This document shows, piece after piece, positions 1,968 through 52,739 of a DNA stretch of 64,000 bases. The position numbers were made by a program, and so were the translations under genes. The notes below the pieces were generated by a model. The model was not told the DNA's origin and did not search any database. It saw only the letters and a list, made by a program, of their open reading frames with translations. The stretch's first letter is position 1. Each line of letters starts with the position of its first letter. Source of the stretch: Candidatus Poribacteria bacterium (GTDB lineage: Bacteria > Poribacteria > WGA-4E > WGA-3G); NCBI GenBank assembly GCA_009839745.1, contig VXPE01000036.1:4763-68762 (forward strand), written 5' to 3'.

Positions 1968-1996
1968 GTCGGCAACTGGAATCAAAGAAAGGGAGA

Positions 1997-2080
1997 TGCC
2001 CCCGACTGGACTCGAACCAGTATGCCAATTAAGGCACAGGCCCTCAACCTGCTGTGTATACCAAATTCCACCACAGGGGC
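1997..2080 (-). tRNA. tRNA-Leu (anticodon GAG), type II with long variable arm, CCA not encoded
   Basis: Reverse complement folds as cloverleaf: acceptor GCCCCTG/CGGGGGC (+A73), anticodon stem GCAGG/CCTGT with loop TTGAGGG, 14-nt variable arm, T-arm ACTGG-TTCGAGT-CCAGT. Confidence 0.9.
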
Positions 2081-2093
2081 ATTGTTATGATTA

Positions 2094-2128: not shown

Positions 2129-5128
2129 TTGGGGAGGATAAAAAAGGAACGGTCGCGATTATCTCTCGCGATGTTTACAGTTTTTTGGACTACAAATATG
2201 GACCCTTCTACATTGGAAACCCTTGAACAACAATTATCCAATACGCTTGCAGGAGAGGTGCGCTTCGATTTGTATTCTAAGGCCCTCTATAGCACGGACG
2301 CGAGCCTCTACCAAATACAGCCGATAGGTGTTGTAATCCCGAAAGATAGCCAAGATGTTATTAAGACTGTGCAAATTGCGGCAGCACGCAATATTCCGAT
2401 CCTCCCGCGCGGTGGCGGCACGAGTCTCGCTGGACAGAGTGTCGGTAAGGCAATCGTGTTGGACATGTCCAAATACATGAATCAACTCCTTGAGGTAAAT
2501 GTCGCAGAGCGTTGGGCGCGCGTGCAACCCGGTATTGTCTTAGACGAACTGAACCATAAGTTAAAACCTCACGGTTTGATGTATGCCCCTGATGTCGCTA
2601 CGAGCAGCCGAGCGAACGTCGGTGGCACCATTGGAAACAACTCCGCGGGTTCGCATTCCCTCATCTACGGTAAAACCATTGATCACGTCATGTCGCTTGA
2701 TTTAGTGCTTTCCAACGCTGATGAAATCACAGCATCCCCCATTTCCATTGCAGAATTAGAGACTAAAAAACAGTGCAACACATTAGAGGCAAACATCTAT
2801 CGTGAACTTTGCCGAGTGTGTGCGGACAACGAAGATGAGATCCGTAAACGCTATCCTCGTATCCTGCGTCGCGTTGCGGGTTACAATCTCGATGAGTTTA
2901 TTCCAAATGCTGGTTCAAAAGAGGTTACACCTTATCGTCGTGATGGATGTGACGCAGACCATCCGTTTAGCTTGACGAAAATCCTCGTCGGCTCTGAAGG
3001 GACACTTGCAACGACGCTTGAGGCGACAATAAACCTCGTGCCGATTCCTAAATTGACCGCTTTGTGCGTTGTACACTTCGAGTCACTTGTCGGTTCCATG
3101 GAGGCGATGCAACCTATCTTGGAATGCAATCCGACTGCCGTAGAACTTATAGATAAGACTATCCTTGATATGGCGCGGGGTTCACTGGAATTTTCGCGGC
3201 TTACGACTTTTATACAAGGCGAACCTGCCGCACTGCTTGCTGTTGAATTTTACGGTGAAACTCAAGCGGAATTGGAGTCGCAGTTAGACAGGCTTGAAAA
3301 AACGCTGAAAAGTACTAGCTTCGGTTATGCATTCGTGCGCTGTTTTACCAGTGAGGAGAAGTCCCGCGTCTGGGAAACTCGGAAAGCAGGACTTGGCTTG
3401 TTAATGGGGATGAAGGGTGATGCGAAGCCGGTTGGTTTCGTCGAAGATGCCGCGGTGCCGATAGAGAACTTACCGGAATACGTCCGTAGATTTGATGAGA
3501 TTGTTACATCACACGATACGACTGCTGCCTACTACGCGCACGCGAGCGTTGGATTATTACACAACCGTCCTATCGTCAATCTCAAATCTGAAACCGATAT
3601 TCAGAAGATGCACGACATCGCCAGCGAGGTCCGAGACCTACTCATGGAATTAGACGGTGCGATGAGCGGTGAACATGGCGACGGTCTCGTCCGCAGTGAG
3701 TGGATAGAGAGCATGTTCGGTCCGCAGATATATCAAGCCCTCGCTGCAGTGAAAAAAGCGTTTGATCCGAACGGGATCATGAATCCGGGTAAAATCGTTG
3801 ATGCACCCCTGATGACAGAAAATCTCCGCTTCGGGACAGACTATAACACCATTAAGGTTGATACTTACTTCGATTTTTCCAGTCAAGACGGATTTGGCGG
3901 AGCAATCGAAATGTGCAACGGTGTCGGTGCGTGTCGGAAAACACTGACAGGCACGATGTGCCCGTCTTTTATTGGGACACGCGAAGAGGAGCACTCGACA
4001 CGTGGCCGTGCAAATGCGCTCCGATCCATTATTTCAGGTGCGTTGCCACATACGGAACTCACAAGTGAACGACTTCAAGAAGTATTAGACTTATGTCTGG
4101 GATGCAAAGCGTGTAAGGCGGAATGTCCATCAAATGTAGATATGGCGAAGATTAAGTATGAAGTCCTTGCACATTATCATAAAGCAAACGGTTTACCGTT
4201 GCACCGACGTTTGTTTGGTGAAATCGGTGCGCTCGCGCCTTTAGGCTCAATGTTCTCACCTTTCTCGAACTGGGCAGTCAATAACGGGTTTTCCAAATGG
4301 GTTGCCGAGAAACTCATCGGTGTTGATCGGCGGCGCGATATGCCGACTTTCGTGCGCCCTACCCATGAACAGTGGTTCCGAAAGCGGAAATCCCGACGAA
4401 GATCGGACAAAAAGGTGGTTCTTTTTTCGGATACCTTTATGAATTACAGCGAACCCTCTATCGGCAAAGCTGCGGTGGAATTGCTCGAAGCATGTGGCTT
4501 TGAAGTATTACTGCCGAAAAAAAAGTGTTGTGGACGCCCTCTTATCTCCGAGGGAATGCTTGACCGAGCCGTTGCGAATGCGAGTTACAATATTGACGCA
4601 CTTCGCGGTTATGCTGACGCGGGAATTCCAATTGTCGGGTGTGAACCGAGTTGTACCTCTGCTATCACTGATGATTACGTCGAGTTAATCGGCACGCCTG
4701 CCGCGAAAGGTGTTGCTGAGGCGACTTGTTCGTTCGAGGAATTTCTTGTCCAACTTGCTGACAAGGGTGAATTGCCCTTGGAATTCTCGGTAGAACCGCG
4801 TGATGTATTGCTGCATGGACATTGTCATCAGCGAGCACTTGTCGGTACTCAGCCGACTGTGAAGATGTTAAGTTTGCCATCGGAACACAATGTCACTGTG
4901 ATCGATTCGAGTTGTTGTGGCATGGCGGGTGCGTTCGGATACGAGAAGGCACACTATGACCTCTCTATGAAAATTGGCGAATTGAGACTTTTTGAGGCTG
5001 TTCGTGAGAAATCACCGGGTAGTTTTGCGTTGAGTGCTGCTGGCTTTTCTTGTAGACATCAACTGGAACATGGGACGGGTGTTCAACCGAAACACCCGAT
5101 TGAAATCTTACATGAGGCGGCAAGGTAA
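2129..5128 (+). CDS. FAD-linked oxidase fused to 4Fe-4S/cysteine-rich (CCG) domains (GlcD-GlcF-like glycolate/D-lactate dehydrogenase type)
   Basis: FAD_binding_4 motif PRGGGTSLAGQS; two ferredoxin-type clusters (CNGVGACRKTLTGTMCP, CLGCKACKAECP); C-terminal KKCCGRP and SSCCGMAG. Start uncertain (TTG 2129, ATG 2171 or ATG 2198). Confidence 0.8.
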   Translation: MGRIKKERSRLSLAMFTVFWTTNMDPSTLETLEQQLSNTLAGEVRFDLYSKALYSTDASLYQIQPIGVVIPKDSQDVIKTVQIAAARNIPILPRGGGTSLAGQSVGKAIVLDMSKYMNQLLEVNVAERWARVQPGIVLDELNHKLKPHGLMYAPDVATSSRANVGGTIGNNSAGSHSLIYGKTIDHVMSLDLVLSNADEITASPISIAELETKKQCNTLEANIYRELCRVCADNEDEIRKRYPRILRRVAGYNLDEFIPNAGSKEVTPYRRDGCDADHPFSLTKILVGSEGTLATTLEATINLVPIPKLTALCVVHFESLVGSMEAMQPILECNPTAVELIDKTILDMARGSLEFSRLTTFIQGEPAALLAVEFYGETQAELESQLDRLEKTLKSTSFGYAFVRCFTSEEKSRVWETRKAGLGLLMGMKGDAKPVGFVEDAAVPIENLPEYVRRFDEIVTSHDTTAAYYAHASVGLLHNRPIVNLKSETDIQKMHDIASEVRDLLMELDGAMSGEHGDGLVRSEWIESMFGPQIYQALAAVKKAFDPNGIMNPGKIVDAPLMTENLRFGTDYNTIKVDTYFDFSSQDGFGGAIEMCNGVGACRKTLTGTMCPSFIGTREEEHSTRGRANALRSIISGALPHTELTSERLQEVLDLCLGCKACKAECPSNVDMAKIKYEVLAHYHKANGLPLHRRLFGEIGALAPLGSMFSPFSNWAVNNGFSKWVAEKLIGVDRRRDMPTFVRPTHEQWFRKRKSRRRSDKKVVLFSDTFMNYSEPSIGKAAVELLEACGFEVLLPKKKCCGRPLISEGMLDRAVANASYNIDALRGYADAGIPIVGCEPSCTSAITDDYVELIGTPAAKGVAEATCSFEEFLVQLADKGELPLEFSVEPRDVLLHGHCHQRALVGTQPTVKMLSLPSEHNVTVIDSSCCGMAGAFGYEKAHYDLSMKIGELRLFEAVREKSPGSFALSAAGFSCRHQLEHGTGVQPKHPIEILHEAAR

Positions 5129-5138
5129 AATCAAAAAA

Positions 5139-6569
5139 ATGTCTAAGATTTATCAACCGCTTGACGATTTCAGGATCGTTGAATTACCAGAGAAACAGTT
5201 ACCTTTTTGGAAAATTGCGGGTCCCGGTGCTATCTTGGTTGGTCTGTCTATTGGTGCGGGTGAGAGTGTGATTTGGCCTCTCATCGCTGCTGAATATGGC
5301 GGGAGCATGATCTGGGCGGCGGTACTCGGCGTATTCCTTCAACTCTGGATAAACTTTGAAGTCGGACGCTGGACGATCGCTACAGGCGAGACAGTGTATA
5401 CGGGATACAACCGTATCTGGCGGGGCTTCGCCCCCTTGTTCATTCTCCTGACTGTGGTGGGTTGGATAGCACCCGGATGGGCACGGACATCGGGACTTGC
5501 GCTCAAAGCACTCATACTTGGACCCGGGGGTTGGGGTCCCGATACCTTTTGGACAATGGTAACATTTGCTGGGGTCGCGGTCATCCTTTTTGGACCCAAG
5601 ATGATTTACCAATCCGTTGAACGGACGGTTGAGGTGCTCGTTGCCATTGTAACAATCGGGTTAATTCTGGTTGCCATCGCTGTCGGCTCAATGGAAACCT
5701 GGCAGAAACTCGGTTCTGGTTTGATAAATGTTGGATATATAGACCCAGGTATGTCGGTCAAAAAATTGTTCAGTGCGTTAGTTTTTGCAGGGGCAGGGGG
5801 AACAGCAAATCTCTTTTACACGTTCTATCTACGGGATAAAAACATCGGTATGGGTGCGCAGCTGCCAGGACTACAGAACCCGCTTCGAGGCAGGAGCGAA
5901 AAGGTGCCCGCGACAGGGTTTCTTTTTGAGGCGACGGCGGAAAACCGAAAACGCTTCACTGAATGGTGGCAATATGTGAAAAAAGATCAGATACTGTTCT
6001 TTTGGGCACTCAACACATTCACGATTCTGCTCTTTATTTTCGGTGCGCTCGCGGTTTTACATCCCCAAGGCATTGTCCCTGAACAAGGCAAACTTATCTA
6101 CGACGAAGCACAGATATTAGGCGAAATCTGGGGCGTGGCGGGGCAGCGGATCTTCTTATTGGTTGGTGTTGCGACGCTTTTTGGCACGCAACTTGCCCTC
6201 GTTGATGGTGTGGCGCGTTCGGTTTCCGACATCATCTACACCAACTTCCGAGGGGCACAAAGACGAAACTTAAGCTGGTGGTATCTCCTGATTGCAGGCA
6301 TCTGGATCGTCGGTGGGTGTGTCATCACTTTCGTTATGGAGCAGTTAAACGTCAGTGAATTAGGATTCCTCTTTAATGCAGCGTACATGGGCGGTTTCGC
6401 TATGGCGATTTATGTGCCGCTTACGCTTTACATGAACTACCGTTTTCTGCCTGATTTCGCAAAACCGAAACGGCTTTCTACCTTCATGATGGTTATCGCT
6501 TCATGTGTCTATATCGGGTTTGCGATTTCAAGTATTGTCTGGGAAGTTAAACAATTAATTGGAGGTTAG
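5139..6569 (+). CDS. NRAMP-family-like transporter (non-canonical metal-site residues)
   Basis: ATG 5139 just after upstream stop 5126-5128; polytopic membrane protein with Nramp-like TM1 GPGAILVGLSIGAGESVIWP; track ORF start 5034 overlaps upstream gene and is unlikely. Confidence 0.6.
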   Translation: MSKIYQPLDDFRIVELPEKQLPFWKIAGPGAILVGLSIGAGESVIWPLIAAEYGGSMIWAAVLGVFLQLWINFEVGRWTIATGETVYTGYNRIWRGFAPLFILLTVVGWIAPGWARTSGLALKALILGPGGWGPDTFWTMVTFAGVAVILFGPKMIYQSVERTVEVLVAIVTIGLILVAIAVGSMETWQKLGSGLINVGYIDPGMSVKKLFSALVFAGAGGTANLFYTFYLRDKNIGMGAQLPGLQNPLRGRSEKVPATGFLFEATAENRKRFTEWWQYVKKDQILFFWALNTFTILLFIFGALAVLHPQGIVPEQGKLIYDEAQILGEIWGVAGQRIFLLVGVATLFGTQLALVDGVARSVSDIIYTNFRGAQRRNLSWWYLLIAGIWIVGGCVITFVMEQLNVSELGFLFNAAYMGGFAMAIYVPLTLYMNYRFLPDFAKPKRLSTFMMVIASCVYIGFAISSIVWEVKQLIGG

Positions 6570-27019: not shown

Positions 27020-27934
27020 TTAGTTCGAACTCGCCAAATCTTTGACCCGTTCCAGCATCGCCTCAGCATTTTGCCTTACGTTCTTATCCTTAGCATGGTG
27101 GGATAACTTCTCAAGCATGGCGATCGCATCTTCAAAATTCCCTTTGATGGCGTATGTTACGCCGAGATAGTATTGGGCGGGTTCATGTGCCTTGCTTTTC
27201 GGATACGTGTCTATGACGACTTTGAAGTGAGAGACAGCCTTTTGAAAGTGCATCTCCGCTTCTTCGGTGTTCTCAAGCATCGCCTTTTCAACCAGTCCGC
27301 CGTAAGCGAGTCCCAATCGGTTGTGTAGGTCGGGGAGGAGTTTCGTCCGGTTTCTCGGATCATGCTCAAACGCTTTCTCACTAAACGAGACTGCTTTTTC
27401 AAGCTGGTTCCGTTCAATATAGGTCAGCGCGACTTGAGCGTTGAGTTTGGCATCGTCTGGCTTCTTCTTGAGTTCGTCGAGTTTCTTTGAAAAGACTTCC
27501 TCTTTTGCCAAAGCATCTTGCATAATCGGTGAAAACTGTTCCGGTGTGAGAAATCCTGAAACCCTTTGGATGAGACCTCCATCTGGACTGACGAACAGAA
27601 CTGCTGGGTAAGCAGTGACTCCGTACCGACTCCGCGTCTCTTCATTGAGCGGATAACTCTTATCTTCGGGATTCACTTTGACGGAAACAAACTTCTCAGA
27701 AAGCTCAATAATGCGTGCATCCGTGAACGTTTCGGCATCCAGCCGCTTACAAAACCCTCACCAATCGGTATAGAAGTCCATCATCATCGGTTTGCCGGTT
27801 TTTTCGGCTTTTGTCAGGCTGTCCTCAAGCGTTTTTTCCCATTTAATTTCGTCGCTCGCGATGAGTGCGGGGACAGTGCCTACCATCAGCAGCAGAACAC
27901 CGAGTGATATGCGGCGAAAAACAGAATTGAACAT
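27020..27934 (-). CDS. thioredoxin-fold + TPR protein, predicted selenoprotein (Sec at codon 59, W-U-G-F-C-K)
   Basis: AAGGAG 7 nt before ATG 27934; signal/anchor MFNSVFRRISLGVLLLMVGTVPALIA; ...KPMMMDFYTDW-TGA(27760-27758)-GFCKRLD... continues in frame into track ORF 27020..27676 (YPAVLFVSPDG + TPRs). Confidence 0.7.
27729..27757 (-). promoter_or_regulatory. SECIS-like hairpin immediately 3' of the in-frame UGA
   Basis: UGA-GG-GUUUU-guaagc-GGC-UGGAU-GCC-GAAAC: lower stem GUUUU/GAAAC, upper stem GGC/GCC, 5-nt apical loop with G at position 2, loop about 19 nt after UGA. Confidence 0.45.
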
Positions 27935-27966
27935 CAATTTTCTCCTTTTTTGTTTAATAACGTCTT

Positions 27967-27994
27967 ATTTTACTTACGATTTGATTTATTTCAA
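27967..27994 (-). promoter_or_regulatory. candidate sigma70 promoter of the selenoprotein gene (TTGAAA-N16-TAAAAT)
   Basis: Minus strand gcTGTTGAAAtaaatcaaatcgtaagTAAAATaagacg, about 30 nt upstream of ATG 27934. Confidence 0.4.
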
Positions 27995-28142
27995 CAGCAT
28001 TATTGCACATTTGACAGCGAGGGCACCACTGTTGTTTTGCTCCCAACATGACTCACTCCTTTGTGATGTTGTGTCCAAAACGCTTCCCTCTGCTCGCCTA
28101 CAGGAAATAGACACACCCAATCACGATAAAAGTTCTCATTTT

Positions 28143-30345: not shown

Positions 30346-32169
30346 TTAATTTTTCCTTCTTTTCGTGCCTGCTGGTGTGGATTGATCCTCGTCAGTCTCG
30401 GTTCGGTTTTGTAAGTATTGTTGTGCTATCGTGAAAACATTATTACACAACCAATACAACACAAACCCGGATGCCCAGTTATAAAAGATGAAGATAAAAA
30501 TGAGAGGCATAAACTGCATTAATTTCGCTTGCATGTTGTCCGTTGTTGGTGCCATATTGCCGACGAATTTCTGTTGGAGCCAGGTTGTTAAGCCGTTTAT
30601 TATAGGTAATAGGCGGACGGCATCTATTTGCGTGACAATCAATGGAATCGTGAAAGGCAGTTCGATTAAAGTGTCGGGAGCAGAAAGGTCATCAATCCAT
30701 AAAAGGAAGGGTGCTCCACGGAGTTCCACTGCGCTTCCAAGCAGTGCGAAGAGTGCCCAAAAAATAGGAATTTGTGGGAGCCATGGTATACAGCCCCCTA
30801 ACGGGTTGACGCCGTGCTCCTTGTAAAGTCGCATCGTGGCGCGATTGAGTTTCTGCGGGTCATCCCTGTATTTCTCCTTCAATTCCACTAACTGCGGTTG
30901 AAGTTTCTGCATCTCCTTCATAGATTTATGTGCTTTGCGTGTGAAGGGATAAGAGATGACCTTCACCAAAGCAGTCAGGAGGATAATCGCGACGCCGTAG
31001 TTTCCAACAACACTGTGAAACCCTTTAAATATCCAGAGCATTCCCCATGCGAGGGGCCAGAAGAATCCGAAATCAATGATTTTCGAGAGACGCACTGGGT
31101 TTTCAGGGGCATTCGGTGCTTCTATACCTTTTAGGATCGTATCGTCCTTGGGACCAACGTAGAGCCGAAAAACATGCGTTTTCTTTTCCTGTGGTGCGAG
31201 ATAAAAACTCGGCAAGACGAGTGCGGCGGTCTCTGTTGGTGCGGTGACAGCAATATCGGTTGTAACATCTGCCTGTGGTGTTTCTATAAATTTATAGGTA
31301 GCGGCCAGCTGCTGATCTGGAATCATCAATGCGCTGAAGTACTGGCTGTCCATGCCAGCCCAGAGGACCGTGGCTAACGCCCGTTCAGATTTGAGTTCAC
31401 GCCTCGGTTTGTCTTCACCGATATACGCTTTTGCGCCTTCACTGCCGCGTCGTCCACGTTTGCCGCTCTTTTTTTCATGTGGAAGCAGATCGGCATTAAT
31501 ACCGCGTCCCCACTGAAGTTGGTATCCATTTGCGGGTTCGGTTCCACCCATAAGCAGCGGTTCATCAGAGACGTTTTGGAAGGTTAGCACCATATCAACG
31601 AAGTAGTTGTCCGGATTGAAGGCGAACAGCTTTGCGACCTGTAATTTTTCTCCGATTTGTGTCCTGAAGACAAGTGTTTCAGCAGTTTGCCCATTTGTGA
31701 TGTTAACTTCCGATTTGTCAGCCTTCCACCTGGCACGGAGTGAATCAAGTTGGAGCTGCGAATTACCGAACCGAAGTGCAAGGCAGTTAAGTGCGTTTTC
31801 AGGAATTAGGTTCAAAGGGGTTTTGTCTGCGTCCGTCCTGTCTGGAAAATGATTTAATTGCCACTGTTTAGGGATTGCGAGTTTTTCGTTAAAAACAACA
31901 GTGTAGTTATCGGTTTGGACGCTGACTTTTGCATCGTCTGGACTTTCCTCAACGGGTGTCCAGAGGTCAGCACTCACGGACGCATCAGTTCCATCGAGTG
32001 TTCCGTGTGTTGCAGTGCCCGATTGTGCCTCACTTGGACTGGGCGCTGCTGGTGTCTCGGTAGTTGCGGGGTCCTCGGGTTGCGGGGCAAAACGTTTGCC
32101 GAAAAATAGGCTCCATCCGATCATCACTGCAATCATTAGAACCAATGCAAGAATATAACGTACTCCCAT
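30346..32169 (-). CDS. yidC: membrane protein insertase YidC
   Basis: N-terminal TM + large periplasmic domain + conserved core YGVAIILLTALVKVISYPFTRK, MQKLQPQLVELKEKY, GCIPWLPQIPIFWALF. Confidence 0.93.
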   Translation of the reverse strand: MGVRYILALVLMIAVMIGWSLFFGKRFAPQPEDPATTETPAAPSPSEAQSGTATHGTLDGTDASVSADLWTPVEESPDDAKVSVQTDNYTVVFNEKLAIPKQWQLNHFPDRTDADKTPLNLIPENALNCLALRFGNSQLQLDSLRARWKADKSEVNITNGQTAETLVFRTQIGEKLQVAKLFAFNPDNYFVDMVLTFQNVSDEPLLMGGTEPANGYQLQWGRGINADLLPHEKKSGKRGRRGSEGAKAYIGEDKPRRELKSERALATVLWAGMDSQYFSALMIPDQQLAATYKFIETPQADVTTDIAVTAPTETAALVLPSFYLAPQEKKTHVFRLYVGPKDDTILKGIEAPNAPENPVRLSKIIDFGFFWPLAWGMLWIFKGFHSVVGNYGVAIILLTALVKVISYPFTRKAHKSMKEMQKLQPQLVELKEKYRDDPQKLNRATMRLYKEHGVNPLGGCIPWLPQIPIFWALFALLGSAVELRGAPFLLWIDDLSAPDTLIELPFTIPLIVTQIDAVRLLPIINGLTTWLQQKFVGNMAPTTDNMQAKLMQFMPLIFIFIFYNWASGFVLYWLCNNVFTIAQQYLQNRTETDEDQSTPAGTKRRKN

Positions 32170-32939: not shown

Positions 32940-33476
32940 TTAGTTGATATACAGATATTTTCTCCACGATGGGTGGCACCCGCGAAAGTGACGATTGAGT
33001 TGCAAATAGGTCAAAATTGACGGTGTTTTCGGCTGACGTTGCAGTTTCCATCGCGTTTCATAGAGCATTTTACTGCCCTTTTTGTTATTACACTCTTTGC
33101 AGGCCGTCACAACGTTCTCCCATGTCGTTTCTCCGCCGCGAGAGATGGGTATCACATGGTCCATCGTGAGTTGCGCTGCTGGGAACTCGCAATGACAGTA
33201 TTGACATGTATACTGGTCGCGGACGAGAACATTCCTCCGTGAAAATTTGACAACGCTGCGCGGGACGTGGACGTAGTTTACTAACCGAATTACATGTGGT
33301 ACTTTCATCGCAGCACTGGGTGAATGAATCTCAATATCAGAGACTTCTTCAGTCTGTGCAGTGCCCTTAAAAACCATTTTCATAGCGCGCCTGAGGTTAC
33401 AAACGTTGATTGCTTCGTAGCTGGCGTTAAGTACTAAAACAGATATTTCCACTTGCATGCCCTCTAACTTAGACAA
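32940..33476 (-). CDS. HNH endonuclease (McrA-like, about 175 aa)
   Basis: CQYCHCEF...MDHVIPISRGGETTWENVVTACKECNNKKG; stop only 3 nt before the rnpA start; start uncertain (TTG 33476, ATG 33458, GTG 33452). Confidence 0.82.
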   Translation of the reverse strand: MSKLEGMQVEISVLVLNASYEAINVCNLRRAMKMVFKGTAQTEEVSDIEIHSPSAAMKVPHVIRLVNYVHVPRSVVKFSRRNVLVRDQYTCQYCHCEFPAAQLTMDHVIPISRGGETTWENVVTACKECNNKKGSKMLYETRWKLQRQPKTPSILTYLQLNRHFRGCHPSWRKYLYIN

Positions 33477-49678: not shown

Positions 49679-50911
49679 ATGATACATAACCTTTCTGAAA
49701 CATACAAGGGATATTTCCGCGATGCTCGGGGGTCTGCTTTGCGTCTCGGCGTGAACGTCTGGCATCAATTCATGGGGCATAAATGTCTCCAGCAGGCATC
49801 GTCGTTGGCGTTTAATACGTTGTTATGTCTTGTGCCGTTGTCGGCAGTTGCGCTGTTTTTACTGAAAACATTTGGTGTTGTGGAAGATGGCAATTCGCCG
49901 TTAATTGCGGTGCTCCGTGATAACTTCCTGCCGCGCTATAGTGCTGAGGAAATTGTATCAGAACTTTCAGGATTTGCCAATAGAAATCTTGGTGGACTGA
50001 GTGTTGGCGGGTTTCTCCTGTTCCTGCTGGTCTCGACGATGCTATTCATGTCGGTGGAGCAGCATTTTAACGATATTTGGGGGGCACGGCGGCGGTTACC
50101 GGTGGTGCAAGCGTTCCAGAAATACGCTGTTTTCTATACACTGCTCTCCGTGGGACCGCTGTTGATTTGGCTCTTCTTTTCGACAGCTACCAACTGGGTG
50201 TTTGGTCATGTGTTCCCATGGGTGTTGGTCTACTGTCTGTTTTTCTTGATGTATATTGCCATGCCGAATACGTTTGTGAAGTGGAGTGCGGCACTGCTGG
50301 GTACACTTGTTGCTGGGACGCTTTTCCAGATCGCCAGGATCGCCTTTGGGCGTTATCTTGAGTTGCTGTGGCAGAACTATAGCGACATCTATGGTGCAAT
50401 GGCGATGTTGATTACCTTTGCTATCTGGACATACGCGGCGTGGGTGGTGATTTTGCTTGGTGCGGAGGTCTCGAATTCTGTTCAGCATTTCCGTCAGCAG
50501 GATGCCGAGAGCGGTCAGTTTCACTATGCGGCCAACGGTTATTTGAACGCTCCGGGTGTTATTACGTTGTTTCTGATTGTAGCGGAGCGCTTTGCTAAAG
50601 GCGACGGAGCGTGTTTGGCAGAAGAGATTGTTGCACGTTCGGGTGTTTCGGAGGAGGTTGTGCACCAGAGTTTTGAACGGTTTAAGGCGGCGGGGTTAAT
50701 CTATGAAGTTGAAGGGGACACGAACGGGTATCTCCCGGCGCGTGCGTTAGAGAAGATTACGGTGGCAACGCTTGTGGATGCGGTTGAGGGTGAGATGACA
50801 ACGCATTTTGTGCGCGGAATATCGTCTGAGTCGGGTGCACGTGTGTTGGGGAGGCTTCAGGAGTCTCAGCGTGAGTGTTTGGATCAGGTTACGGTCGCGT
50901 CGTTGTTGTGA
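49679..50911 (+). CDS. YihY/BrkB family membrane protein with soluble C-terminal domain
   Basis: ASSLAFNTLLCLVPL...YGAMAMLITFAIWTYAAWVVILLGAEV typical of YihY (formerly RNase BN) proteins. Confidence 0.75.
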   Translation: MIHNLSETYKGYFRDARGSALRLGVNVWHQFMGHKCLQQASSLAFNTLLCLVPLSAVALFLLKTFGVVEDGNSPLIAVLRDNFLPRYSAEEIVSELSGFANRNLGGLSVGGFLLFLLVSTMLFMSVEQHFNDIWGARRRLPVVQAFQKYAVFYTLLSVGPLLIWLFFSTATNWVFGHVFPWVLVYCLFFLMYIAMPNTFVKWSAALLGTLVAGTLFQIARIAFGRYLELLWQNYSDIYGAMAMLITFAIWTYAAWVVILLGAEVSNSVQHFRQQDAESGQFHYAANGYLNAPGVITLFLIVAERFAKGDGACLAEEIVARSGVSEEVVHQSFERFKAAGLIYEVEGDTNGYLPARALEKITVATLVDAVEGEMTTHFVRGISSESGARVLGRLQESQRECLDQVTVASLL

Positions 50912-52739
50912 GATCCGGTGAAAATTCGCTGGCTTTGACGTAATATAGAAATCCGATACACATCTCGTCTGTCGTTTTTTCACCCCAACCAACAGGGATC
51001 GGTGGATCATGGGGGTTGGCTGGGTTTTCCGCGGAATTATCGAAATGCGCGACGAGATCGACACGGGTGCCAGCCGGAAAGAAAAGCGGCTCGCGATAGT
51101 GATAGACATCCTGCCAATTGAAATCCCAATCCTGGATCCAGATGAGGTCATGTTTATCCCCAGATGGCGTTATGGCAACAAGCCGCATGTCGCGCCCAAG
51201 GAGGTGCATGTGCGGCATCGTTGCTAAGAGGTAAACGTCTTTTTTAAACGTTTCCGATGCCAAAACCTCATACCAATCTTCACCGGCAGGGATAACGAAA
51301 TCGCTGTTAATTGCGTCTCCGATACGCAATTTGGCGGTTTCTGCGGTTTTGGAGAAATATAACCCCAACCGCGAACGATCGCGTTCAAGATGTCCGGTGC
51401 GATAGTAATGCACTTGCATGACGATGTCGGCCCCTTTCGGTAGGAGATAACCGACACCCTCCGGTAGGACCAATGGTGTAACACCCGGCGCCCAACCACC
51501 AACTGTCCCTTCACTATCAAATCCAGGTCCTGTCCCCTCTGTAACATAGCCCGGTTTGGGGTCCTGCGCGTCGAGTTTACGCGCTTCGCCGTTTACGTCT
51601 AAGTAGGCGATGACGTGATGTACGGTTTTGCGGTTGCCGGGTTGGACATCAACGGCTTGGACGTACATGTCCGTCTCGAAGTTAGTGGGTATAATGAACT
51701 GCCGATATTCGTCTTCGCCTTCGGGTTCAATTTCATATTCGACTGGCATTTCAGCGATCCAATCGGGTTCACCGAGTGCCCAACTGTCAGGGAACTCTGG
51801 TGCCGGTGGGATGGAATCAAGATCGCCTGCAGGTGCCCCGGCTTCCACCCAGTGTGCGATCACCTGGATCTCGGTATTTGTGAGTTGCCGTCCGTTTTTG
51901 AAGTCCCCGTAGCCGGGTGCGGGTTTCCACGGTGGCATGAGACGTGCCTGTGTATATTCAGCGATTTCGGTTGCCCACGCCTTTGCGTCGCTGTAATCGG
52001 TGAGCGTGAAGGGGGCGACTTCGCCGTGTCGATGGCACGTCTGGCAATTCTTCTGGAGGATCGGTGCGATGTGCTGACTATAGGTAATCTCTGTGGGGAG
52101 ATCGGTTTCGGGGAGATGGATCGTGCATCCGAACGCCGGTGTCTCCTGCACGGGGATAAAGGTATCGGTGTGTATCGCGAGAAGGGCATCTTGTAGGTAG
52201 TGGTGCTTGACGCGTGGCTCGTAGCGGTTATCATCAATGGCACCGCGGTAGGTGATCCGACGGGTTGTATCAACGATAACAGCCTGCGGTGTCATCGTTG
52301 CGCCGAGAGCACGTGCGATTTTGCCGGTTGTGTCCTTCACGACAGAGAAGGGATAATCTGCTTTGGTGATGTAGTTCTTTACGTCGTCTTCGGAATCGTT
52401 TTCATTGGCGTAGACTGCGATGAAAGTGGTATTTCGAGGTGCGAATTCAGCATGTAACCGTTTCAGGCGCATCGTATAGCGTTGTGCGACTGGGCATTCG
52501 GTTGCGAGGAACGCGAAGACAACGGGTCCCTGTGCGGTGAGGGTATCTAAATTATGTGTCTCGTTGTGGAGTGTCGTGAAGGTGAGACGCGAAATTTTTG
52601 TGCCGATGGGAACGTTGCTCGGTTGTAAGGATGCCTCTTGGATAACGCGATGTTTTTTTGTGATTTTGTATTCGGACGCGGTGTGTCCCGCGAAGGGGAG
52701 TACAAGGACCAGAAAAAGCGTTAGTAGATACGACTTCAT
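50889..52739 (-). CDS. secreted redoxin (thioredoxin-like) - CxxCH - copper type II ascorbate-dependent monooxygenase (PHM/DBH)-like fusion protein
   Basis: Signal peptide; AhpC/TSA-like VVFAFLATECPVAQ; ILQKNCQTCHR; Cu-ligand pattern TVHHVIAY, VMQVHYY, MPHMHLLG, DEMCIGF. Confidence 0.7.
   Translation of the reverse strand: MKSYLLTLFLVLVLPFAGHTASEYKITKKHRVIQEASLQPSNVPIGTKISRLTFTTLHNETHNLDTLTAQGPVVFAFLATECPVAQRYTMRLKRLHAEFAPRNTTFIAVYANENDSEDDVKNYITKADYPFSVVKDTTGKIARALGATMTPQAVIVDTTRRITYRGAIDDNRYEPRVKHHYLQDALLAIHTDTFIPVQETPAFGCTIHLPETDLPTEITYSQHIAPILQKNCQTCHRHGEVAPFTLTDYSDAKAWATEIAEYTQARLMPPWKPAPGYGDFKNGRQLTNTEIQVIAHWVEAGAPAGDLDSIPPAPEFPDSWALGEPDWIAEMPVEYEIEPEGEDEYRQFIIPTNFETDMYVQAVDVQPGNRKTVHHVIAYLDVNGEARKLDAQDPKPGYVTEGTGPGFDSEGTVGGWAPGVTPLVLPEGVGYLLPKGADIVMQVHYYRTGHLERDRSRLGLYFSKTAETAKLRIGDAINSDFVIPAGEDWYEVLASETFKKDVYLLATMPHMHLLGRDMRLVAITPSGDKHDLIWIQDWDFNWQDVYHYREPLFFPAGTRVDLVAHFDNSAENPANPHDPPIPVGWGEKTTDEMCIGFLYYVKASEFSPDLTTTTRP

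Follow-up and report, generated by a model that had tools for sequence, protein, structure and literature searches.

Thioredoxin-fold proteins carrying a UxxC motif (U denoting selenocysteine, hereafter Sec) are the commonest bacterial selenoprotein type. One such family, the 'Thiol:disulfide interchange protein' (PF13098 Thioredoxin_2; 'Trx-like 2, cd02953' in the GOS survey), was first predicted in early prokaryotic selenoproteome surveys and is now catalogued, its entries mentioning neither a tetratricopeptide repeat (TPR) fusion nor Poribacteria (PMC9312934, PMC13188914, PMC2398784). Here we describe a gene on the minus strand of a 64,000-nt stretch of Candidatus Poribacteria DNA (contig VXPE01000036.1; the whole stretch is referred to hereafter as the window), in which an in-frame TGA occupies the first-Cys position of a thioredoxin fold and which we predict to encode an exported, TPR-bearing selenoprotein. 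By the criterion of domain plus motif, rather than by comparison with the representative WP_011366075.1, the window protein belongs to the catalogued thiol:disulfide interchange UxxC category, with which it has in common PF13098 as top domain, the UxxC motif, a DsbD-gamma-like fold and a selenocysteine insertion sequence (SECIS)-like element directly downstream in the coding sequence. The cd02953 entry is the DsbD-gamma family.

Comparison with solved structures was made through a model of an orthologue, P0107 (AlphaFold, pLDDT 85, pTM 0.75). In this model a separate, low-confidence N-terminal helix (residues 1–28, signal or anchor) precedes one continuous thioredoxin (Trx) fold, in which the codon predicted to be recoded falls between the beta-1 strand and the active-site helix, and the chain ends in a helical TPR domain (approximately residues 134–297). 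Among solved folds, DsbD-gamma (PDB 2fwg, 1uc7 and 1vrs; TM-score ~0.75–0.78 relative to the target, root-mean-square deviation (rmsd) 2.5 Å, sequence E-values of 1e-9) comes closest to the Trx domain, the W-C-x-x-C position being common to both; DsbD-gamma is periplasmic, a further likeness to the window protein with its predicted export. The same relationship is apparent in the NCBIfam DsbD profile, the C-terminal positions 458–571 of which match residues 28–140 of the protein. The score, however, is 62.8 bits against the NF001419 cut-off of 330, and the membrane and alpha domains of DsbD have no counterpart here: the window protein is stand-alone, predicted to be exported, TPR-bearing, and has predicted Sec in place of Cys.

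The best full-length Foldseek matches are to YbbN (3qou and 3qdn, E ~1e-6), and the TPR part taken separately matches the TPR domains of YbbN (3qou/3qdn), YbgF and BamD. The layout of the window protein resembles that of YbbN, in that an N-terminal Trx domain is followed by a C-terminal TPR domain within ~280–300 residues in both. This likeness is one of arrangement: the global TM-score is only ~0.29 (rmsd ~21 Å, 14% identity), hence domain orientation differs between the two, and there is no sequence-family membership. Pfam TPR_20, with a gathering cut-off of 25 bits, reaches only 17 bits (E = 0.0075). YbbN, also called the chaperedoxin CnoX, resides in the cytoplasm, and its E. coli form has SxxC, whereas the window protein begins with a signal/anchor peptide and has a predicted UxxC. 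A third point of comparison is the Trx7/PDZ (seleno)protein model NF041199, which shares an exported Thioredoxin_7-type domain, a Sec/Cys active site and a fused protein-binding module; there the partner is PDZ and not TPR, only the first 60 profile positions match, and the score is 27.9 bits against a cut-off of 300. NF045694 TsoB (74.4 against 805 bits) and NF041383 VPGUxxT (25.2 against 275 bits) both stay below cut-off as well.

An in-frame TGA at the thioredoxin active site

The gene (27020..27934, minus strand) comprises 304 codons from ATG 27934 to TAA 27022–27020, one of them the predicted Sec-UGA, and its frame translates as MFNSVFRRISLGVLLLMVGTVPALIASDEIKW...GKPMMMDFYTDW*GFCKRLDAETF...DLASSN*, with the N-terminus MFNSVF and a single internal stop. 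That stop, TGA 27760–27758 (codon 59), is placed exactly at the first Cys of the thioredoxin W-C-x-x-C-K motif (DFYTDW*GFCK); the predicted Sec would hence take the N-terminal (attacking) position of a W-U-G-F-C-K redox motif, with the partner Cys of the UxxC supplied by codon 62 (TGT, 27749..27751), which is invariant in 68 orthologues. A Shine–Dalgarno sequence, AAGGAG (27942..27947), lies 7 nt 5' of ATG 27934–27932, and the MFNSVF... start of the protein is kept among orthologues. Codons 1–27 (27854..27934) form a putative signal or anchor peptide (MFNSVFRRISLGVLLLMVGTVPALIAS), assigned from its sequence, a dN/dS of 0.26 and its appearance as a separate helix in the P0107 model. The thioredoxin-fold domain follows at residues 43–137 (27524..27808; Thioredoxin_2 / Thioredoxin_7 / DsbH-like), and then an all-helical C-terminal TPR domain at residues ~150–290 (27065..27487; Pfam TPR_1/2/8/19, AlphaFold and Foldseek), TPR families matching residues 150–290 in Pfam. 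With U written as C, the top Pfam match, Thioredoxin_2 (PF13098, 2.8e-14), straddles the TGA, and the Thioredoxin_2, Thioredoxin_7 and DsbH matches together span residues ~32–137, both sides of it.

In a mechanical open reading frame (ORF) list this frame appears as two pieces, 27758..27937 of 59 aa and 27020..27676 of 218 aa (GTG start, minus strand), the latter being the gene-caller product, devoid of both export signal and active site. The protein databases show the same outcome: more than 100 homologues are present, almost all called at ~218 aa and covering ~72% of the query, and these Poribacteria entries are named 'TPR repeat protein' or 'hypothetical protein'. A sequence-only reading of the window had anticipated much of this, proposing a continuous minus-strand frame from ATG 27934 into the 218-aa ORF, an AAGGAG 7 nt upstream of that ATG, a stop at the first-Cys position of W-C-x-x-C-K, and gene callers that lose the export signal and active site. 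All four proposals hold: there is one frame with a single TGA, the AAGGAG is seen at 27947–27942, the Thioredoxin_2 match spans the TGA and Cys homologues align there, and the database entries are shortened as foreseen.

Conservation of the TGA was followed in a species scan (one genome per species) that gave 66 loci, all from Candidatus Poribacteria. The tblastn alignment crosses the stop over approximately residues 1–304 in 65 of the 66, and TGA stands at the same codon in every one, at protein identities of 34–98% (the closest, L001 from the complete genome OY764016.1, being 98% identical) and within a retained context of ...MMDFYTDW-TGA-G[F/W/Y/S]-C-[K/D]RLDA...; TGY is found at the site in 0/66 species. 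The sequence-only reading had named an assembly error (TGT or TGC at this site) as something that would undo it. The 66 genomes were independently assembled, many of them as complete long-read chromosomes, and the TGA recurs in all of them and also on 65 metagenome contigs.

Selection acts on both sides of the codon. By the Nei–Gojobori method, using 37 closer sequences (36 orthologous loci and the window), dN/dS is 0.135 over the mature codons 28–58 upstream of the TGA and 0.26 over the signal peptide, compared with 0.163 in the Trx part after the TGA and 0.161 in the TPR part. Because the upstream value is close to those downstream, we conclude that translation and constraint extend to the 58 upstream codons as they do to the remainder of the gene, which answers the earlier concern that they might show no coding conservation. 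Frameshifts and extra stops, the usual signs of a pseudogene, were not seen.

Homologues with Cys at the site, whose alignment at residue 59 had been put forward as a test of recoding, are readily found. The nearest non-poribacterial locus (L067, Aminicenantes) reads DFYTDWCPPCKRL (DFYTDWCPPCK), with Cys at residue 59, and the first Cys of W-C-x-x-C in the PDB relatives 2kuc, TXNDC12/ERp18 and DsbD-gamma aligns with the same residue. An exhaustive HMMER search with P0107 recovered many full-length (~275–290 aa) Trx+TPR relatives at 30–37% identity, named solely 'thioredoxin family protein' or 'thioredoxin-related protein'; CxxC is present in 183 of the 190 aligned Trx domains of these relatives, mostly as TDWCGWCK.

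Constraint on the hairpin downstream of the TGA

The SECIS of E. coli fdhF, the reference element for bacteria, has its SelB-binding apical stem-loop ~11–12 nt after the UGA, with G/U in the loop, and lies inside the coding sequence. The window gene likewise has a coding-sequence hairpin with an apical stem-loop at a similar distance from the UGA, but the two sequences are unrelated and the upper stem in the window is much shorter (4 bp). Bacterial SECIS elements in general bear little mutual resemblance (PMC13188914). Beginning 12 nt downstream of the UGA, the SECIS-like core in the window, CGGC-UGGAU-GCCG (27733..27745, minus strand), consists of a 4-bp stem and a 5-nt loop with GG; codons R64-L65-D66-A67 together with the first base of codon 68 supply its sequence, which occurs once in the window. 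It crowns a larger predicted stem-loop (27723..27761). Beneath this apical hairpin are a lower stem, GUGAG/UUCAC, that contains the UGA itself, and a middle stem whose register varies. The sequence-only reading had placed a hairpin 3 nt after the UGA. A SECIS-like hairpin is indeed present, its fold borne out and its sequence invariant at synonymous sites, although the placing needs correction: the conserved core starts 12 nt after the TGA, and only weaker flanking stems begin ~2 nt after the TGA or include it.

Codon usage indicates that this element is constrained as RNA. Across the 68 orthologues, codons 64–67 are CGG in 68/68, CTG in 68/68, GAT in 67/68 and GCC in 67/68 (entropy ~0), compared with a codon entropy of 1.5–2.2 bits at other equally conserved Arg/Leu codons in the same gene. 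This invariance is not a protein requirement, since xRLDA follows WCxxC in only 6 of 171 Cys-form sites. Folding of the 43-nt stretch 27722–27764 gives a minimum free energy (MFE) of -14.9 kcal/mol (z = -2.67), with z ~ -2.9 in other lineages and a few weaker; a first fold of a 76-nt stretch was not significant (z -0.67). In the Cys homologue from Aminicenantes the hairpin is absent (z = -0.18). RNAalifold of 26 sequences retains the lower GUGAG/UUCAC and apical stems with only GU<->GC changes, and the middle stem shifts register between the GFC...AE and GWC...AD lineages. The bSECIS model specifies a loop of 3–9 nt, an upper stem of 4–16 bp, G in the first two loop positions, a distance of 16–37 nt from the UGA and an MFE of no more than -7.5 kcal/mol (PMC13188914); the element falls within all of these limits, with its 5-nt loop UGGAU (G at positions 2 and 3), 4 bp, 16-nt spacing and -14.9 kcal/mol.

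The association of hairpin and TGA extends beyond the Poribacteria genomes. A metagenome scan with the pattern TGGTGN-N6-TGYRAN-CGGCTGGAYGCC, in which the third base of the codon at the site was left free, gave 96 matching stretches, for which 80 loci were returned. The codon at the site is TGA in 65 of these, TGY in 15 and TGG in none; the closing G of the 4-bp stem occurs in 58/65 TGA forms compared with 4/15 Cys forms (Fisher p = 2.8e-6).

The predicted recoding and its rivals

We predict that TGA 27760–27758 is read not as a stop but as selenocysteine, through the recoding mechanism usual in bacteria, a reading to which we assign a probability of roughly 0.88. A ribosome reaching the UGA would find the mRNA 12 nt downstream folded into CGGC-UGGAU-GCCG atop weaker lower stems; SelB, a specialised elongation factor, would bind this hairpin loaded with Sec-tRNA(Sec), and Sec would be delivered to the UGA. 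The product would have 304 residues, arranged as a signal/anchor peptide, a DsbD-gamma / Thioredoxin_7-type fold with W-U-G-F-C-K, and a C-terminal TPR domain. Its Sec would attack substrate disulfides or oxidised cysteines, with the TPR domain holding clients or partners. We consider it fairly likely that the protein works in this way, as an exported (extracytoplasmic) selenol/thiol-disulfide oxidoreductase with TPRs that bind clients or partners. For this genome we infer SelB and tRNA(Sec), and for the product selenium incorporation, export and the biochemical role just described.

Literature on related genomes bears on the machinery. SelA/SelB/SelD counts by clusters of orthologous groups (COGs) are 2/1/1 for Poribacteria bin70, 4/1/2 for bin44 and 2/1/1 for Ca. 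Poribacteria WGA-3G (PMC5649159 Table S4), and the last of these (ASZN01...) is the source of a locus in our species scan (L036) that has the TGA orthologue. Sec-type group 4 [NiFeSe] hydrogenases have also been reported from Poribacteria (PMC13582414).

Several observations weigh against recoding as Sec. ARAGORN did not find tRNA-Sec in the 64-kb window, in 60 loci or in all 1.1 Mb of fetched DNA, and selA, selB and selD were not found among the 46 long window ORFs or in the DNA flanking the loci (1.1 Mb fetched in total). Since Sec genes can lie far from the genes they serve, their absence here carries no information; the case for the machinery in this genome is drawn from the SelA, SelB and SelD COGs of related genomes in the literature, which is good indirect evidence, not proof. 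The stem (4 bp) and the spacing (16 nt) are both at the minimum of the bSECIS model, and the closing pair is lost in two of the Poribacteria loci (L054 and L056) and in 7/65 metagenome TGA forms. A permissive Rfam scan of 27600–27850 returned no SECIS family, only chance snoRNA-like matches. RNAalifold of the 26 sequences gave no compensatory base pairs, since the conserved helices do not vary; support for an RNA element is therefore drawn from synonymous-site invariance and from association with TGA, and not from covariation. Finally, one locus (L070, protein P0096; L070:2241-2243, ENA ERZ25069191 ctg501724_5x_l) has a real TGG (Trp) at the site.

This Trp codon is a point for any reading in which UGA is decoded as a standard amino acid without Sec machinery, be it by a reassigned code (TGA = Trp or Gly) or by hairpin-stimulated near-cognate read-through by tRNA-Trp, and the hairpin (CGGCTGGATGCCG) downstream of the site in L070 is intact. 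Two database proteins, P0107 and P0096, had seemed to be full-length with Trp at the site. The W in P0107 (L069:268-270, Logan SRR23261226) is an artefact: the gene caller rendered as W a codon that is TGA in the DNA, evidently having used a TGA = Trp model on a short contig, and the full-length protein was recovered by accident. L070 is left as the only relative with a Trp sense codon; its contig is labelled 5x, and its motif is degraded (TCG TGG GGT TCG, giving DVYTDSWGSCK, with two TGG-to-TCG, Trp-to-Ser, differences flanking the site). The TGG reflects a recent Sec loss or else sequence errors, the contig being a low-coverage long-read one. A Trp in the attacking position would abolish the redox chemistry of a site that is Cys in 183/190 homologous domains, and TGG is absent from the 80 returned metagenome loci. 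Moreover, TGA terminates 11 of the 46 long ORFs in the window, pdxJ included, from which we conclude that the organism uses the standard code and not a TGA-sense one. Decoding as a standard amino acid is accordingly judged highly improbable.

The ordinary use of TGA as a stop by other genes of the window can equally be taken as a point for termination here, whether in a pseudogene or in a pair of genes, one for a 58-residue peptide and one for a 218-residue protein with an internal GTG/Met start, and all gene callers do report the 218-aa ORF. A real stop would, however, sever the thioredoxin fold between strand beta-1 and the active-site helix; purifying selection on the upstream codons is the same as downstream, 66 species and the sibling families retain both frame and TGA, and a pseudogene would have gathered the frameshifts and further stops that were not seen. 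We give this possibility very little weight, less than that accorded to a standard amino acid. A sequencing or assembly error turning TGT/TGC into TGA has nothing in its favour beyond the general possibility of such errors, and the identical TGA in 66 independently assembled genomes and on 65 metagenome contigs makes it negligible. Taken together, these results exclude, or make very unlikely, an assembly error, a pseudogene, an internal start and a reassigned code.

The rival closest in mechanism to selenocysteine insertion retains the SECIS and changes only the residue: a tRNA(ReC)-type tRNA (SelC-like, Cys-charged) would read the UGA with SelB, yielding a mature CxxC. Such tRNAs, which decode UGA as Cys given a SECIS, have been described in some lineages of metagenome-assembled genomes (PMC13582414), and gene sequence alone does not tell Sec from Cys delivery. 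Against this, SelA (Sec synthase) and SelD COGs in Poribacteria genomes imply that Sec-tRNA can be made, tRNA(ReC) occurs in only ~2% of other (non-UXXU) Sec-type genomes (PMC13582414), and a Cys product should tolerate change of TGA to TGY, yet no Poribacteria species of the 66 has TGY. We regard Cys insertion as very unlikely, though less so than the other rivals. Selenocysteine recoding thus remains our reading of the codon, and on it the gene is a real, systematically mis-annotated selenoprotein gene, as predicted from sequence and conservation.

Genomic setting, sibling clusters and significance

The gene lies immediately downstream of yidC-jag-mnmE, with a pseudouridine synthase/HAD/pdxJ block opposite; the neighbourhood matches in the Trp-variant locus L070, the sole other locus whose flanking genes were examined. 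The spacer between mnmE and the gene contains a promoter-like TTGAAA-16-TAAAAT (27967..27994, minus strand) with 10/12 consensus matches, a match to consensus only; two promoter-like sites were found where 1.3 are expected, which is weak evidence. The same spacer contains a 31-codon ORF (27954–28049, minus strand; MLGAKQQWCPRCQMCNNAVEINQIVSKIRRY) with a CxxCxxC motif (WCPRCQMC), which we considered and rejected: a comparable small upstream CxxC ORF occurs in only 2/66 orthologous loci and is absent from the 98% identical L001, and a chance ORF is most likely. A scan for further TGA-split genes in the window gave nothing convincing.

Other features of the window were noted in passing. A stand-alone HNH endonuclease ORF (178 aa, 32940–33476, minus strand) sits beside the yidC-jag-mnmE block, ~770 nt from yidC (30346–32169), and may be a mobile or defence-related insertion. 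A 616-aa ORF (50889–52739, minus strand) has as its only strong Pfam match an N-terminal AhpC/TSA (redoxin) domain at residues 45–171, the remaining ~440 residues giving no family at E <= 1e-10. This second, unusually large thiol-peroxidase-fold protein of the window is free of in-frame TGA codons. A 999-aa FAD-linked oxidase ORF (2129–5128, plus strand) overlaps by ~95 nt a 511-aa ORF (5034–6569, plus strand) with no Pfam match at E <= 1e-10, the start of which was probably mis-set by a mechanical ORF rule. Scanned at gathering threshold, Rfam returned 0 matches in the whole window, tRNA family included, though ARAGORN places a tRNA-Leu(GAG) at 1995–2081 (minus strand); the miss looks like a quirk of the tool or filters rather than biology.

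The read-through ORFs from the metagenome scan fall into at least four protein clusters, one of which is the Trx–TPR cluster that includes the window gene. At least three further thioredoxin-fold clusters have W-TGA-x-x-C-[K/D/N]RLDA, and in them an identical hairpin stands at an unchanged distance from the TGA (e.g. L106:5707-5736, L079:6546-6575 and L081:3478-3507). Two of these siblings are ~350-aa proteins whose N-termini, as read from their sequences, are lipoprotein-like; one of the two belongs to Candidatus Marinimicrobia, and its database entries are likewise shortened and named 'hypothetical' or 'thioredoxin family protein'. The fourth cluster comprises ~190-aa proteins in which Sec (TGA) and Cys (TGC/TGT) forms are mixed, on contigs taken to be from soil/rhizosphere. 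None of the clusters reaches the cut-off of a curated NCBIfam selenoprotein model. The cassette itself can be written W-UGA-x-x-C-[K/D/N]-R-L-D-A, encoded as UGA-N12-CGGCUGGAYGCC(G).

A tentative wider proposal, which we hold as possible rather than probable, is that the window gene belongs, as one branch, to a large and so far unannotated set of exported DsbD-gamma-like selenoproteins sharing one near-invariant recoding cassette, with at least four clusters in at least two phyla (Poribacteria and Marinimicrobia) and a soil/rhizosphere cluster, and with TPR fusion in Poribacteria and Marinimicrobia. If this were true, active site and SECIS would have been inherited, or have spread, as a single module, and the Trx–TPR form would be an extracytoplasmic, selenium-dependent counterpart of the chaperedoxin CnoX.

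The type of selenoprotein described here is already known, and the gene does not change the understanding of selenoproteins; it is unsurprising to the selenoprotein specialist, and of use for annotation and for sponge-symbiont biology. In the papers searched we found no description of the TPR fusion, of conservation throughout the phylum Poribacteria or of a near-invariant SECIS cassette common to these clusters. For annotation, more than 100 Poribacteria entries have been shortened to a piece without export signal or active site, with a parallel set in Marinimicrobia, and no curated NCBIfam model would rescue the shortened entries. 'W' calls like that in P0107 could flag missed selenoproteins cheaply, and the 13-nt hairpin, invariant and always offset by 12 nt, provides a simple and specific search signature for this SECIS class, as seen in the predominance of TGA among the loci returned by the scan.

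For the biology of this sponge-associated phylum, the gene is evidence for selenocysteine decoding across Poribacteria. SelA and SelB are enriched in sponge symbionts (PMC5649159), and the gene gives that enrichment a concrete selenoprotein client; were the wider grouping to hold, this client would be a phylum-wide one.

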